DNA of 64,000 bases from an uncultured Erysipelotrichaceae bacterium (GCA_902802355.1 CADCLU010000005.1:664-64663), one strand, 5' to 3'; shown: positions 57,536 through 63,044, counted from the stretch's first letter. Program-made: numbers and translations. Notes: generated by a model from the sequence alone, not told the origin.

Positions 57536-59260
57536 TTATTCAACGTCCTGAAGAGCGTCGTAACCTTCCTCGCCAGTTCTTACTTTGACGACATTCTCAA
57601 CGTCATAGACGAAGATCTTGCCATCGCCGAGGTTGCCGGTATAAAGGACTTTCTTCGCGGTTTCAATGACGTTTCTGACAGGGATTTTGCTGACGACGAT
57701 GTCGACTTGGACCTTTGGAAGGAGGTTGGTGTCGACTCTGACGCCACGGTAATACTCTTCATAGCCCTGCTGCTGGCCAAAGCCTAAGACATGGGCAACG
57801 GTCATGCCGGTGATGCCGAGTTTGCTCATTGCGTCTTTGAGAGCGTATAAGCGTTCCTCTTTGAAGATGATCTGAACCTTGGTGAACTTCGGAGAGGAGG
57901 AAGCTTTGCTTGGGACCTTCTTGACCGGTATGGCCTCTTCCACTGGGGTAATGCCAGTGACTGGGAGGGCTTCTTTCTCAAGGCTATATTCGGCGTAGGC
58001 GTTAGAGGCATACACGAAGTCTGCGTAAGCGGATGGAAGACCGTGTTCAGTCTTATCAAGACCCTTGATCTCCTCTTCTCTAGAGACACGGAGACCGACG
58101 GTCTTTTTGATGATGAAGAAGGTGATCGTCATGGTGACGACGGTGTAAGCGGCAACGGAGACGAAGCCAAGACACTGGACACCGAGCTGGTAGAAATCAC
58201 CGGTGTAGAATAAGCCTTTGAGTCCGGCTGGAGCGGCTGGGTTGGCTAATAAGCCAACAGCGATTGTGCCCCAGATACCGTTGGCCATATGGACGCCGAC
58301 AGCGCCGACAGGGTCATCGATATGAAGCTTGAGGTCGAGGAATTCGACGACGAAGACGACAAGGAAGCCAGAGACCAAACCAACGACGGTTGAGCCAATC
58401 GCATCGAGGGCGGCGCATCCTGCTGTGACACCGACTAAGCCGGCTAAGCAGGCGTTGATGCACATCGAGACATCGGGTTTCTTGTTCTTGATCCAGGTGA
58501 AGATCATGGTAGTGACGGTCGCTACGGCTGGAGCGATGGTCGTGTTGAGGAAGATGGTTGCGAGTTCGCTTGGGGTGGTCGCGGCGGCTCCGTTGAAGCC
58601 ATACCAGCCAAACCAGAGGATGAAGGCGCCTAAGGCACCTAAAGGAATTGAGTGGCCTTGGATGGCGTTTACTTTAGTAACTTTGCCATTTTCGTCGTAT
58701 TCGTATTTGCCAATGCGTGGTCCGAGGATGATGGCACCGATGAGAGCGGCGATGCCGCCGACCATATGGATCGCGGTGCTTCCTGCGTAATCGTGGAACC
58801 CAAGGCTAGAGAGCCAGCCTCCGCCCCAGATCCAGTGAGCCTCGATTGGGTAAACGATCAAAGAGATGACCGCGGAATAGATGCAGTAAGAGAGGAACTT
58901 GGTTCTTTCTGCCATGGAACCGGAGACGATGGTCGCGGCGGTTGCGCAGAAGACAAGGTTGAAGACGAAGGTCGATGCTGCGGTGAAACCTTCGGCTGGG
59001 CTTTCGATGAAAGCGGCGAATTTAGCGAAGAGATCGAGGTTTGGGATACCGATGAGTCCCGCTAAAGCATCTTCACCCATCATTAAGCCGAAGCCTAAGA
59101 GCATGAAGACAACGGTGCCGATGCAGAAGTCCATAAGGTTCTTCATGATGATGTTGCCAGCGTTCTTCGCACGGGTGAAACCAGTCTCAACCATGGCGAA
59201 TCCGGCCTGCATGAAGAAGACGAGGGCGGCACCAATCAAATACCAAAATTCAATTGTCAT
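57536..59260 (-). CDS. amtB: Ammonium transporter fused to a C-terminal PII domain
   Basis: MQAGFAMVETG, DYAGSTAIH, WFGWYGFN and IDDPVGAVGVH; PII motifs GITGMTV, YRG and TGNLGDGKIFV..RTGE. Confidence 0.93.
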   Translation of the reverse strand: MTIEFWYLIGAALVFFMQAGFAMVETGFTRAKNAGNIIMKNLMDFCIGTVVFMLLGFGLMMGEDALAGLIGIPNLDLFAKFAAFIESPAEGFTAASTFVFNLVFCATAATIVSGSMAERTKFLSYCIYSAVISLIVYPIEAHWIWGGGWLSSLGFHDYAGSTAIHMVGGIAALIGAIILGPRIGKYEYDENGKVTKVNAIQGHSIPLGALGAFILWFGWYGFNGAAATTPSELATIFLNTTIAPAVATVTTMIFTWIKNKKPDVSMCINACLAGLVGVTAGCAALDAIGSTVVGLVSGFLVVFVVEFLDLKLHIDDPVGAVGVHMANGIWGTIAVGLLANPAAPAGLKGLFYTGDFYQLGVQCLGFVSVAAYTVVTMTITFFIIKKTVGLRVSREEEIKGLDKTEHGLPSAYADFVYASNAYAEYSLEKEALPVTGITPVEEAIPVKKVPSKASSSPKFTKVQIIFKEERLYALKDAMSKLGITGMTVAHVLGFGQQQGYEEYYRGVRVDTNLLPKVQVDIVVSKIPVRNVIETAKKVLYTGNLGDGKIFVYDVENVVKVRTGEEGYDALQDVE

Positions 59261-59383: not shown

Positions 59384-60265
59384 ATGGACATTCGCACATT
59401 ATCTTACTTTGTAACCATTGCCGAAGAACTCAACATCACCAAAGCCGCCGAGAAGCTTTGCATGTCGCAGCCACCGCTCAGCAATCAGATGAAAAGCCTT
59501 GAGGAAGAACTTGATACAACCCTCTTCATCCGTGGCAAAAGACACCTTCAATTAACCGAATCGGGAAAGCTTCTTTATAGACATGCCAAAGAAATTCTTT
59601 CTTTGGTCGACAAGACTTCCGAGGAGGTCAGAGCCATGGCAAAAGGCATGCACGGAAAGATCGCAATCGGCCTTGTTGAGGGTTCCGCCCCTATCATTGC
59701 CGCAGAGTGGATCGAGACCTTTTTGAAGGAACACAAAAACGTTCAGTTCACCGTCGTCGATGGCAATAGCGACGAGCTCATCCAGAAACTTAGAAGCGGC
59801 CTCATCGACCTTGCCATCATCACCTCCCCTTGCGACAACACCCTTCTTAGCAGTTTCAAAGTCGGGCAAGAGCAGATGACCGCCTTCATGAGCAAAGACA
59901 ACCCTCTTGCTTCCCTTCCTGGTTCCACCATCGATTTGGCTATGCTCAAAGACAAGGCCCTCATCGTCCCTAGCAGGGAATCGATGGTCTCGATGATCTA
60001 TCGCTGGTTCAAGGAAATCCATATCGAGCCGAAGATCGTCTGCAAGATGGACAACTACCTCGACGTCGCCGCTCTTGCGGGAAGGAACGTCGGAATCAGT
60101 CTCTTCCCTAAAACCTCGTACATTCTCAATCAGCAGATCATCGCCAAAGAGATCGTCAACCCGGAAAGATATGTCGAATACTTATTCGTTTGGCTCAAGA
60201 ACAAGCCTCTCTCCCTTTTGAATGAGGCTTTCATCAATCACGTCAAATCCTTCGTGAAAGCATAA
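59384..60265 (+). CDS. LysR family transcriptional regulator
   Basis: NITKAAEKLCMSQPPLS..LEEEL..LF.R..LTESG HTH plus substrate-binding domain. Confidence 0.95.
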   Translation: MDIRTLSYFVTIAEELNITKAAEKLCMSQPPLSNQMKSLEEELDTTLFIRGKRHLQLTESGKLLYRHAKEILSLVDKTSEEVRAMAKGMHGKIAIGLVEGSAPIIAAEWIETFLKEHKNVQFTVVDGNSDELIQKLRSGLIDLAIITSPCDNTLLSSFKVGQEQMTAFMSKDNPLASLPGSTIDLAMLKDKALIVPSRESMVSMIYRWFKEIHIEPKIVCKMDNYLDVAALAGRNVGISLFPKTSYILNQQIIAKEIVNPERYVEYLFVWLKNKPLSLLNEAFINHVKSFVKA

Positions 60266-60496
60266 AAAAAGAACCTATTTTCATAGGTTCGATTTTGCCA
60301 ATCAGCTCGATGGTTGGTGGTGGTCCGTCTTACCGATTTGCGGTTAGCATGACTTGTCTTTCGCAATTTAGGGCTCGAAGGAGGAGAAAGGAGATACCTC
60401 GATTGCCCAAGAAACAGGTGATGCCGAAGGAGACGATTGTCTGTTTAAGTCCCAAAGAGCCGAAAACCGCATGACTAGCTATTTGGGTTCTTAAGC
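60266..60496 (-). ncRNA. Candidate ~230-nt regulatory sRNA with anti-SD loops
   Basis: Own extended -10 (TGtTACCAT, 60503-60511), at least four hairpins, terminator gaacctat..ataggttc+U7, and no credible ORF. Confidence 0.6.
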
Positions 60497-60502
60497 ACTT
60501 GA

Positions 60503-60540
60503 ATGGTAACATCCCCTCTGCCACAGAAGCGCCACAAAGA
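60503..60540 (-). promoter_or_regulatory. Direct-repeat promoter 1 (TGTGGC-N5-TGTGGC-N11-TACCAT)
   Basis: Same motif and spacing as 63007..63044. Confidence 0.65.
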
Positions 60541-60569
60541 AAAAAGCAGCCAAGTCGGCTGCTCTTTTT
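60540..60569 (-). terminator. Terminator of the two-component operon
   Basis: agcagcc-aagtc-ggctgct flanked by A and T tracts. Confidence 0.8.
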
Positions 60570-60577
60570 GATTTTAA

Positions 60578-61336
60578 TCAAAGATCTTCAAATATCGGCC
60601 AGGAATACTGAATCATGTACTCGCCTCTGTACATGCGTATCGCGTTAGGGTTCCCCTTCTTATATTCGTAGGCATCGCAGTCGACCTTATCGACATCGAT
60701 TGAATAGCCGTTATGGCTTTTGACGAAAACGTCAGCGCAGCCCACGCTCTTGAGGGTCTTTTGGATGTCGGCGATGAGGTTCCTCAAATAGGACTTATGA
60801 TCTTCCTCCCAAAGGACGGCATTGAGCTCATTGATATTGATGGCAGAACCTTCCCTATCGACGAGGTAAGCGAAGAGCTCTTTTGACTTCGAATAGGAAA
60901 AACGAAGGGGTTTTGCTTGGAAAAATAGCTCAAAATTGCCAAAGCATTTGATTTGGAGTTTCTTCGTTGGCTCTAGTTCCACAGGGAAACGGAGGCCTTC
61001 CACTTCCTCTTTCACTTTGGCTGGGCTCACTGGTTTAGAGACATAGCCGGAAGCATGCATCTTCATGGCTTCCATGGCGTAGTTGTTATAGGCGGTCACG
61101 AAGATGATGTTGATCTTCGGATTGACCCCTTTGAGTTTTTTGGCGAGAGCGATACCGTTTAGCCCTGGCATCTCAATATCGAGGAAGGCGATGTCGATTT
61201 GCTCTTTCTCATTTTCCTCAAAGGCTTTGAGTGGGTTGGAATAGGAAAGCAGTTCGGCCTCAGGGAGGACTTTTTTGACCGTTTCCTCAAGTCTTAGAAG
61301 CTGGAGCTTCTCATCATCGACGAGCAAGATTTTCAT
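60578..61336 (-). CDS. Response regulator, REC + SARP-type (winged helix/BTAD-like) output
   Basis: LVDDE, FLDIEMP, FVTAY and SKP receiver motifs; output IKCFGNFELF..KSKELFAYLV..LWE..YRGEY. Confidence 0.9.
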   Translation of the reverse strand: MKILLVDDEKLQLLRLEETVKKVLPEAELLSYSNPLKAFEENEKEQIDIAFLDIEMPGLNGIALAKKLKGVNPKINIIFVTAYNNYAMEAMKMHASGYVSKPVSPAKVKEEVEGLRFPVELEPTKKLQIKCFGNFELFFQAKPLRFSYSKSKELFAYLVDREGSAININELNAVLWEEDHKSYLRNLIADIQKTLKSVGCADVFVKSHNGYSIDVDKVDCDAYEYKKGNPNAIRMYRGEYMIQYSWPIFEDL

Positions 61337-61344
61337 AATTGCAC

Positions 61345-62601
61345 CTACTTATAGAAAAACACCGTGACAGTCGTTCCTTTGTTGAGTTCGCTTTCGACTT
61401 TGACCTCTCCCCTACACATCGAGGAGATTCTATATTTGACGTTGTTGAGTCCGTAATGGTTGCTTCCTTTGACGTCATTAGGGTCGAAGCCGACTCCATC
61501 GTCGGATATCGTAACGACATAAGCATCGTTATTTTCATAGGTCTTAAAGGTGATGGTTCCCCCTTCGATCTTCTTGAGGATGCCGTGTTTGGCGGCATTT
61601 TCCACTAGAGGCTGCAAGGAAAGAGCTGGGAGCATGAAGTCCTTTGTTTGAATGTCGTAAACGACATTGAGACGGTCTTCAAACCTCATCTTCTCCAAAG
61701 AGAGATACGTTTTTATATGCTTAAGCTCATCGGCGAAAGGAACGAGGCCGTTCTTTGAGAGCGAGGAAAGGTTGGCTCTAAGGTAATCGGTGAAATCATC
61801 AAGGCCTTTCTCCGCTTTGTCAGGATCGATTTTGATGAGGGTTGATATGGAGGCGAGGGTGTTATAGATGAAGTGAGGCTGAATCTGGGAGATCATGATC
61901 TTCACTTCCGCTTCCTTGTTCCTCTTCGCTTGGTTGGCAAGTTCCATATTCTTCCTTACGTTGACGAAGAGGAAAAGGATCTCAATTGCGATGATGATCG
62001 AGAGATAGGCCACCGCATAACCTGGAAGAAGGTTCTGGATGATGATGGCCACAAGCGGCACCGCACAATATGCTGAGAAAGCGATTTTCTCGGCAATTTT
62101 GACCTTTTTGTTGAAAATGGCGAGGCAGAAAACCGTCGCGAAGGTGACGAATTGATAGCCTTGGGAGATAATCATCGTCTTCGCTCTCGTGTACACGCCA
62201 TTCTCCGCATAGAAGAACATGTGGTTGAAAATATTCGCAATATCAAGGGCAACGAAAACGATATAGAGACCCAAACTCACGGCCCAGAGAATATTCGAAG
62301 TCTTCTTTTTGATTGGGATGTAGGCCATTGCGTATCCCATGAGCAAGAGCAACTCAAAGTTGTTCATGATGTAGAAGACCGTATAGAAAGCGATGATGAG
62401 GTTGTCGCTCGTATAGTTCATCTTGATGAGGGTGAACACCAAGTACGTAGCGAAATGGAAGGCATTGAAAACGACGAAAGCGAGGAGACAAAGCTCATCT
62501 TTCCTTTTGTTTTTCTTGAGAAGAATGTTGATGGTATGAATCAGGAAAAGGGCTATGCCGATGATGCATACCGTTGCGTTGAATGCGCTTTTGCTGTCCA
62601 T
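61345..62601 (-). CDS. LytS/YesM-type membrane sensor histidine kinase
   Basis: About 7 TM helices; SQIQPHFIYNTL, YLSLEKMRF, LQPLVENAAKHG, DDGVGF and GTTV motifs; start at ATG 62601. Confidence 0.92.
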   Translation of the reverse strand: MDSKSAFNATVCIIGIALFLIHTINILLKKNKRKDELCLLAFVVFNAFHFATYLVFTLIKMNYTSDNLIIAFYTVFYIMNNFELLLLMGYAMAYIPIKKKTSNILWAVSLGLYIVFVALDIANIFNHMFFYAENGVYTRAKTMIISQGYQFVTFATVFCLAIFNKKVKIAEKIAFSAYCAVPLVAIIIQNLLPGYAVAYLSIIIAIEILFLFVNVRKNMELANQAKRNKEAEVKIMISQIQPHFIYNTLASISTLIKIDPDKAEKGLDDFTDYLRANLSSLSKNGLVPFADELKHIKTYLSLEKMRFEDRLNVVYDIQTKDFMLPALSLQPLVENAAKHGILKKIEGGTITFKTYENNDAYVVTISDDGVGFDPNDVKGSNHYGLNNVKYRISSMCRGEVKVESELNKGTTVTVFFYK

Positions 62602-62651
62602 TTCCAATATTGTACAAAATTTGTACAAGTTATCAAACAGCGGCCCCTAAA

Positions 62652-62682
62652 GAAAAAGGACCCTATGGTGCGAGGGGTCCTT
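62652..62682 (-). terminator. Terminator of the small-protein transcript
   Basis: ggaccc..gggtcc hairpin followed by a U-tract on the minus strand. Confidence 0.75.
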
Positions 62683-62763
62683 ACGACACAGGCCTCATTG
62701 CCGAGTGGCTAGAAAGGGTTTGACTAATTGCCACCGGCACTTGGCTTGCCTACATTTTGACGA

Positions 62764-62964
62764 TCAGCGTGGCTTGAGTCCGAAAACAAGTCCCAATACT
62801 ACGGCGAGTATTGTGAATAAGCCAATTCCCAAGATGATGAAAAAGCGCGTGGTTAGCCTCTTTTTCCTTGAGAGGGCATTTTCCTCCTCATGGAGCTTTC
62901 TGTCATAGTACTCGAAAGCCGCTTTATCCGATTCAGTATCTTCTTCGTACCAGAAGTCGTTCAT
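62764..62964 (-). CDS. Small protein with acidic N-terminus and single C-terminal TM helix
   Basis: GGAGG 7 nt before ATG 62964; 66 aa. Confidence 0.72.
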   Translation of the reverse strand: MNDFWYEEDTESDKAAFEYYDRKLHEEENALSRKKRLTTRFFIILGIGLFTILAVVLGLVFGLKPR

Positions 62965-63006
62965 CAATGTGCCTCCTAAATGAAATAAAACGTTCGAGTT
63001 GGCTAC

Positions 63007-63044
63007 ACTATAGGTGGTGACACGTCACAAAAGCGCCACAAAGA
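63007..63044 (-). promoter_or_regulatory. Direct-repeat promoter 2 (TGTGGC-N5-TGTGAC-N11-TATAGT)
   Basis: Same motif and spacing as 60503..60540. Confidence 0.65.

Follow-up and report, generated by a model that had tools for sequence, protein, structure and literature searches.

A predicted anti-Shine-Dalgarno small RNA gene beside a two-component sensor locus in uncultured rumen bacteria

Sponge RNAs of the CsrB/RsmZ type carry GGA motifs for CsrA. RNAIII, which is about 514 nt long, encodes δ-haemolysin and is governed by a LytTR regulator, lies beside the sensor-regulator locus that drives it and is a main output of agr. As described in the cited part of PMC2790875, the staphylococcal RNAIII is a multi-hairpin molecule whose C-rich loop motifs pair with Shine-Dalgarno (SD) sequences, and it falls in a class of Firmicute small RNAs that have a 5′ hairpin, a terminator and unpaired, SD-binding C-rich motifs and that work without Hfq. 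The csRNA genes are direct targets of the OmpR-type response regulator CiaR, and their products contain unpaired sequences complementary to SDs (PMC3091779, in the part cited here). The same part of that paper gives the pattern by which CiaR-dependent csRNA genes were predicted, namely a hexamer repeat-N5-repeat, 10 nt, a -10 element, no -35 element, and a terminator within 250 nt.

The locus described here lies in a window of 64,000 nucleotides, the whole stretch of DNA analysed, from the 1.09-Mb genome (G000) of an uncultured Erysipelotrichaceae bacterium. To our knowledge, hardly any regulatory RNAs are known from uncultured rumen Bacilli with reduced genomes. An earlier note on this DNA, made from the sequence alone, had proposed a multi-hairpin RNA displaying anti-SD as well as anti-start-codon loops. 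We consider it probable (roughly 0.6) that the element is a stand-alone gene for a trans-acting anti-SD small RNA of about 233 nt, under the control of the adjacent two-component system.

The promoter of this RNA has the same geometry as that of the streptococcal csRNA genes (RF02379), as set out in the cited part of PMC3091779. The box itself differs, since GTGGCG-N5-GTGGCA does not fit the CiaR box NTTAAG-N5-TTTAAG; the likeness between the rumen regulator and CiaR lies in the OmpR type and the box geometry, and the rumen regulator is paired with a PF06580-type kinase. While csRNAs have two stem-loops, the rumen RNA is longer, with about five hairpins and one copy per genome, and whereas csRNAs carry an anti-AUG element, the CAU-containing loops of the rumen RNA are not conserved, its anti-SD tracts being predicted to be unpaired in 7/7 homologues. 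The csRNA model from Rfam, whose gathering score is 57, reached only 19 bits, with a match at 60540-60625, in the upstream terminator and outside the RNA. Judged from its sequence, the rumen RNA shares the 5′ hairpin, the terminator and the unpaired SD-complementary tract with the C-rich-motif class as the cited part of PMC2790875 describes it, a likeness of function and not of homology. Like RsaE/RoxS and other Rsa RNAs it has unpaired UCCC/UCUCC tracts, and no Hfq was found in its genome; it has no sequence or model similarity to RsaE/RoxS, and its tracts, at 12-21 nt, are far longer and look like the anti-SD tail of 16S rRNA. The rumen RNA is restricted to a single small clade and is not distributed family-wide. 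Compared with RNAIII, it is only 233 nt long, has no conserved ORF and no Rfam match, and lies next to the gene of an OmpR/PhoB-like regulator. It resembles CsrB and RsmZ in having several repeated short loop motifs and in its two-component control, but the loops are CU-rich and CsrA was not found, which sets it apart from these sponges. With the family models unmatched and a different box, the rumen RNA is not a member of the csRNA, RsaE-type or RNAIII families; most likely, it constitutes a new family within a known type of regulator, confined to a small group of uncultured rumen bacteria.

Anatomy and gene neighbours of the RNA

Nucleotides of the predicted RNA were numbered on the minus strand with G60496 as nt 1. 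The features of the element and its convergent neighbour are as follows.

60264..60496, minus: predicted non-coding RNA, 233 nt, bounded by promoter and terminator, with a putative start at G60496 and its end in the U-run
60445..60496, minus: 5′ hairpin P1 (hairpin 1), GCUUAAG..CCCAAA/UUUGGG..CUUAA, nt 1-52, from the sequence
60412..60446, minus: helix 2, AAACAG (nt 51-56)/CUGUUU (nt 80-85), enclosing UCUCCUUC, from the sequence
60371..60408, minus: hairpin P3, GGGC..UCGAGG/CUUCGAGCCC, nt 89-126, from the sequence and the local fold
60377-60394, minus: 18-nt pyrimidine tract UCUCCUUUCUCCUCCUUC displayed by P3, from the sequence
60338..60366, minus: hairpin P4, UUGCG/CGCAA, nt 131-159, with loop AAAGACAAGUCAUGCUAAC, in lineage A only, from the sequence
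60297..60340, minus: hairpin P5 displaying ACCACCACC (60316-60324), from the predicted fold
60264..60290, minus: intrinsic terminator with an 8-bp stem and U7 (hairpin at 60290-60271, U7 at 60270-60264), from the sequence and a terminator scan
59384-60265, plus: LysR gene, convergent with the RNA, from the gene call

The hairpins, pyrimidine-rich loops and U7 terminator listed in the earlier note are all present in the minus-strand sequence of 60264-60496, and the minus strand holds up as the coding strand of the RNA, in that a conserved promoter is directed into the element and the terminator closes it. Within helix 2, ACAAUCGUCUCCUUCGGCAU is the best conserved linker. The stop codon of the LysR gene (60263-60265, plus) overlaps the U-run of the RNA terminator. 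The RNA gene stands alone, its downstream neighbour varying among genomes. Further along the window, 57536-59260 (minus) was found to hold one 574-aa ORF for an ammonium transporter fused to a P-II nitrogen-regulatory domain.

No ORF of at least 20 aa is common to the three lineages in which the RNA occurs (see below); ORF frames differ even within lineage A, and most of the ORFs begin with TTG. The expectation that Rfam would return no hit was borne out, since at the gathering threshold (4227 models) the window contains two tRNAs only. A local Rfam scan by E-value gave nothing near a gathering score, and the three homologous loci scanned gave no family. A search of the open-access literature retrieved nothing on the promoter box described below, or on a rumen-bacterial anti-SD small RNA of such a type; the single paper containing the box motif appeared to concern another subject.

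The regulator box, the sensor locus and the output slot

Upstream of the RNA lie its promoter and, on the same strand, the genes of a sensor locus.

60503..60511, minus: extended -10, TGtTACCAT, 10 nt past the box, from the sequence
60519..60536, minus: regulator box, direct repeat TGTGGCG-CTTC-TGTGGCA (GTGGCG-N5-GTGGCA, 11-bp period), replacing the -35, from the sequence
60545..60575, minus: terminator of the response-regulator gene, between the regulator and the RNA promoter, from the sequence (the scan reports this hairpin on the plus strand)
60578..61336, minus: response regulator, 252 aa, with a Pfam receiver domain and, from a structure model, an OmpR/PhoB-like winged helix; proposed activator
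61345..62628, minus: histidine kinase, 427 aa, PF06580 and HATPase_c (Pfam)
62764..62967, minus: small membrane-protein gene, 66 aa from ATG 62964, behind the second box
63007..63040, minus: second regulator box TGTGGCGCTTTTGTGACG (63023-63040), 10 nt, and -10 TATAGT (63007-63012); 19.3 bits

The box sequence, TGTGGCGCTTCTGTGGCA (60536-60519), follows directly after the terminator of the regulator gene. A generic sigma-70 scan called no promoter at the RNA start. To follow the box in relatives, 80 loci with orthologues of the regulator (64-99% identity) were fetched from rumen bins labelled Bacilli, Erysipelotrichaceae, Acholeplasmatales or Clostridia; 78 were assessable, and two had too little downstream DNA. 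The box, with at most three mismatches, was present downstream of the regulator gene in 46/78 loci. When 45 boxes were picked by the box alone, TAnnAT was found exactly 10 nt on, with T in 44, A in 45, A in 34 and T in 45 of the 45 sequences, and this fixed distance identifies the box as a promoter element in place of a -35. The consensus of the 45 boxes is GTGGCA-N5-GTGRCA, and the half-sites co-vary between species (GTGGCA/GTGGCA, GTTGCA/GTTGCA and GTAGCA/GTAGCA), as would be expected if one dimeric protein reads both. A position weight matrix built from the 45 sites gave only two sites above 14 bits in the 1.09-Mb genome. The box of the RNA promoter was the best, with 39.6 bits, followed by a site of 19.3 bits before the small membrane-protein gene that heads the sensor locus; the reversed-sequence control gave one match, of 14.3 bits.

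The sigma-54 consensus is TGGCAC-N5-TTGCA, which TGGCGC-N5-TGGCA of the box resembles. A sigma-54 promoter was considered and rejected, as TGACA lacking the GC is found at many sites and the fixed-distance -10 at all of them. Other genera of the family (L035-L064) were also seen to carry the box with its extended -10, in as many as 10 copies per genome, with none in the control read backwards; five box copies lie within about 4.5 kb of one contig (C5 of G308), which looks like a cluster of small regulated genes.

The structure model of the regulator had a pLDDT of 82.7, and its best full-length matches in the PDB were DrrB, VanR, PhoP, PrrA and RpaA, over some 228-231 aligned columns; the Pfam winged-helix domain, Trans_reg_C, was not called in this protein. 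On the model, the regulator belongs to the OmpR/PhoB family, with a receiver and a C-terminal winged-helix DNA-binding domain, and from its position we infer that it binds the direct repeat and activates transcription. The 66-aa protein behind the second box (MNDFWYEE...) is a single-pass membrane protein that matched no Pfam or NCBIfam family, and its gene and box are conserved in two further genomes (G007 and G004). This gene is set apart from the kinase gene by a sigma-A-like promoter and by a terminator-like hairpin at about 62650-62685, so that autoregulation of kinase and regulator would need read-through. The 66-aa protein may serve as a small partner of the kinase in feedback.

We searched for the RNA itself with the exact pattern of its start together with the box, and with a covariance model. 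It was found in 8/78 genomes of the genus (exact start pattern and box; covariance model E <= 1e-17), in one copy per genome. These fall into lineages A (G000, G066 and G013), B (G075) and C (G007, G067, G004 and G002). The covariance model reached E ~0.08 in two other genomes of the genus, and it had no matches in 150 other genomes of the family (48 genera). BLAST of the RNA against relatives retrieved near-identical copies and the promoter part only; the diverged homologues were located by synteny and pattern search. The homologues of the seven relatives belong to the seven closest regulator orthologues (83-99% identity), and in every case the RNA lies directly 3′ of the regulator gene. The genes past it vary: a convergent LysR gene in G000 and G066, an ldhA-like gene on the same strand in G013, and an AbrB-like gene in lineages B and C, with further terminators between the RNA and the AbrB-like gene in lineage C.

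With regulator orthologues of 76% identity or less, the slot behind the regulator is occupied by protein genes, encoding secreted proteins with Ig-like, MBG or Listeria-Bacteroides repeats or small zinc-ribbon peptides. At seven loci (L081, L093, L099, L101, L116, L136 and L139), the box was seen before genes for large signal-peptide proteins with Ig-like, MBG, MAM or Listeria-Bacteroides repeats. Two slot peptides (L071:2413-2667 and L079:2356-2556) have the pattern ...L(S/D)xxxGG and score 14.6 and 14.7 bits with a bacteriocin-signal model whose cut-off is 15.7; one of the two carries a zinc ribbon. These peptides suggest a regulon of the peptide-signalling or bacteriocin type. A gene of about 400 aa (M..K..YI.MY.DYEVL.F...HFDKAPYG...) recurs after the box at five loci (L083, L084, L088, L131 and L144); the L131 copy, when scanned, had no Pfam or NCBIfam match.

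Folding and conservation across three lineages

The fold of the G000 copy exceeds chance only weakly. For the exact 233 nt the minimum free energy had a z of -1.8, with 11/200 shuffles as stable, and for a 291-nt stretch z was -0.66; in the global minimum-energy fold part of P3 is replaced by an alternative pairing and helix 2 is absent. Since this copy barely beats its shuffles, the structural case rests on the relatives. The sense strands of the homologues in G075, G007 and G002 gave z values of -4.4, -4.4 and -5.0, with 0/200 shuffles reaching the same stability. The antisense strand is far less well folded than the sense strand in G075 and G007, and in G002 the gap is smaller (sense -4.95, antisense -3.07). 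The plus strand of G000 is slightly better than its shuffles (z = -1.9 to -2.3).

The RNAs of the three lineages all begin with GCUUAAG and have in common the linker ACAAUYGYCUC...GGCAU..CCUGUUUC as well as their general layout. Hairpins 1, 2 and 3 and a terminator recur in all of them, diverged as they are, and the 3′ halves of the RNA differ strongly from one lineage to another. The outer stem of P1 is kept in 8/8 sequences, with compensatory changes at two inner pairs. Predictions for lineages B and C include helix 2, in which G075 has exchanged one A-U pair for G-C. The pyrimidine tract, 12-21 nt long across lineages, is enclosed by a local hairpin (P3) in 8/8 sequences, and the closing stems of this hairpin are unrelated among lineages (UCGAGG/CUUCGA, GAUGGAG/CUCCAUC and GAGCGG/CCGCUC). 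In G013, where the P3 stem has two substitutions, it is kept by a one-base register shift at nearly the same energy (-11.7 vs -11.8). The mean probability of being unpaired was 0.65-0.80 for the pyrimidine tract in the 7/7 full-length homologues, against a molecule-wide mean of about 0.4, and 0.93-1.0 for ACCACCACC in lineage A; a similar tract elsewhere in the G075 RNA had 0.92.

Covariation among homologues, a check proposed with the original observation, gave a positive result of modest weight. In an alignment of the five sequences of lineages B and C, with 58 predicted pairs and 91.5% of cells paired, 6/58 pairs are compensatory, compared with 1.6 +/- 1.1 in shuffles, and 0/500 shuffles reach 6. 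When the pairing partners were slid along the same alignment, at most two pairs were compensatory. The support is modest because the tested structure was derived from the same B and C sequences, and covariation from only three independent lineages is thin. MAFFT with RNAalifold on all eight sequences recovered P1 alone; a re-alignment of the eight sequences was set aside, as it misplaced the 3′ strand of P1.

Two further proposals of the earlier note fared less well. The repeated AGUCAUGC loops, taken as anti-start-codon elements, are unconserved: loop 1 reads UAAAUUGC in G013, whose RNA is 94% identical overall, and neither copy occurs in lineages B and C. Hairpin 4 and the alternative pairing of UGCGGUU with AACCGCA occur in lineage A and not, in that form, in lineages B and C.

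Shine-Dalgarno complementarity, candidate targets and alternative readings

The P3 loop contains CUCCUUUCU, which also occurs in the 3′ tail of the 16S rRNA of G000, and it would therefore pair with many strong SDs. The 10-nt matches to SDs noted earlier in the window are real but generic; outside the RNA gene, GAAAGGAGAT occurs once and AGAAAGGAGA three times. A segment-wise energy scan over 1107 crude gene calls found no outlying target, the best z being -3.6, for the P3 loop. A scan of the same gene calls with the whole RNA was discarded, as it produced meaningless duplexes with very large loops. Among 1106 start regions, the longest exact complement was the 14-nt GCUCGAAGGAGGAG, against a control maximum of 12 nt, and its counterpart in the RNA lies in P3.

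60373..60386, minus: RNA segment CUCCUCCUUCGAGC, 14 nt complementary to the bPH leader, from the exact-complement search

GCUCGAAGGAGGAG spans most of the short leader of a monocistronic gene for a bPH_2-domain membrane protein on contig C28. In G013, the only difference of the RNA segment from that of G000 is a C to U change, and a G to A change in the leader, at the base opposite, makes the 14-nt duplex perfect again; in 6 of the 7 genomes that yielded the leader, its sequence is otherwise the same. The mismatched combination of the G000 RNA with the G013 leader is predicted to be the weakest duplex (-22.5 vs -26.4 to -28.5 kcal/mol). This is a single event, with a rough p of about 0.02-0.03 after the testing of two candidates. 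About half of the 14-nt site is the 3′ strand of the P3 stem, so that pairing requires the stem to open. The RNAs of lineages B and C have no long pairing with the bPH leader, although the leader is identical there. The bPH gene (E <= 1e-20) occurs in 9/78 genomes of the genus, including 6/8 carriers of the RNA, the other two carriers being 84% and 88% complete; as gene and RNA share a clade, their co-occurrence is not independent evidence.

The bPH promoter and leader show almost no variation across 70 nt in seven genomes (G000 C28 4955-5025; L259-L261, L280, L281, L283), while the identity of the bPH protein in these genomes is only 82-97%, and the promoter and leader are thus under some constraint besides the proposed RNA pairing. 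Two other candidate targets were dropped. The 13-nt complement at the rplW leader falls within the final part of the rplD coding region and does not vary in 5/5 genomes, including G013, where a G-U pair is still possible, so that it offers no covariation test. For a secreted protein on contig C12, with an 11-nt complement to the linker, orthologues could not be traced outside lineage A (30-32% identity, many paralogues).

A minus-strand, stand-alone, non-coding RNA outside the Rfam families, with unpaired anti-SD tracts, fits an RNA that blocks SDs in trans. Taking the computed anatomy, conservation and promoter geometry together with the tie to the sensor locus and with the complementarity and its one compensatory change, we infer the following course of events. 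The phosphorylated OmpR/PhoB-type regulator encoded just upstream would bind GTGGCG-N5-GTGGCA as a dimer, the repeat standing in for a -35 element 10 nt before the extended -10, and transcription would run from about G60496 to the U7 terminator. The RNA, stabilised by its 5′ hairpin, would expose UCUCCUUC, UCUCCUUUCUCCUCCUUC and ACCACCACC in loops and linkers; these tracts would pair in the cell with the SD regions of mRNAs and repress them by blocking translation initiation. Flanking bases would confer specificity, and the best candidate target in lineage A is the short leader of the bPH-domain gene.

It is unlikely that the RNA is transcribed from its conserved regulator-dependent promoter and yet nearly functionless, a decaying remnant of a former slot gene. 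Such decay would fit the confinement of the RNA to eight close relatives, with protein genes in the slot at regulator identities of 76% or less, as well as the strongly diverged 3′ halves and the weak folding in lineage A. However, three lineages keep the 5′ hairpin, the tract hairpin on different stems and terminators of their own, compensatory changes exceed those in shuffles, no common ORF remnant is seen, and P3 of G013 was retained by a register shift of equal energy. Distinctly unlikely is a decoy or sponge, raised as an alternative in the earlier note, in which the repeated pyrimidine-rich loops would hold a protein (a pyrimidine-tract or SD-mimic binder, or ribosomal protein S1) with no pairing to mRNA. 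The several exposed C/U-rich tracts per molecule would suit such a role, as would the CUCCUUUCU common to the P3 loop and the 16S tail and the energy scan with its lack of a strongly outlying mRNA, but this proposal found no partner: in the 96.6% complete genome, CsrA (PF02599) had no match and Hfq was not found, by searches that matched in control genomes. The transcribed strand also has no GGA loops, the sequence and number of the tracts vary by lineage, and the one compensatory change between RNA and mRNA speaks for pairing.

Synteny, the direction of the promoter and the lack of a conserved ORF count against the remaining readings. That the element acts in cis, as a leader or attenuator of a downstream gene on the same strand, is very improbable: the ldhA-like gene of G013 and the AbrB-like gene of lineages B and C would allow it, but in G000 and G066 the RNA is followed by LysR, which is convergent and has a stop codon overlapping the terminator, and the downstream genes differ by lineage, with extra terminators in lineage C. 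It is more improbable still that the functional transcript is the plus strand, either as a GGA-rich stretch extending the LysR mRNA at its 3′ end or as a CsrB-like RNA. This strand is indeed GGA-rich, and in G000 it folds slightly better than its shuffles; yet no CsrA was found, G013 and lineages B and C have another neighbour in place of LysR, the conserved promoter faces the opposite way, and the minus strand folds far better in G075 and G007, if by a smaller gap in G002. Least probable of all is that the element encodes a small peptide, for instance a pheromone, like the double-glycine-type slot peptides of other genera. The two slot peptides of that type score just below the bacteriocin-signal cut-off, but here the lineages have no ORF of at least 20 aa in common, frames differ within lineage A and starts are mostly TTG.

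Returning to an anti-SD RNA acting in trans, a more far-reaching version of that reading is possible, and we put it forward tentatively, as doubtful: the RNA may be the dedicated, RNAIII-like effector of the sensor system, its gene having been swapped into a conserved regulator-driven output slot. Apart from the box of the 66-aa gene, the RNA promoter is the only strong box match in G000.

The locus forms a complete unit of sensor kinase, regulator, DNA box, RNA output and candidate target, and G000 and G013 provide a natural pair of compensatory variants. A csRNA-type promoter layout and a C-rich anti-SD design recur here in a distant lineage with unrelated sequences, and a single regulator-driven slot, occupied by an RNA in one clade and by protein genes in other clades, clearly illustrates how the output of a regulon is rewired. 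The box can be used for mapping this regulon across many rumen genomes. If the RNAIII-like reading is true, a whole signalling pathway of these rumen bacteria would act only through the control of translation, by means of an anti-SD mimic of the 16S tail.
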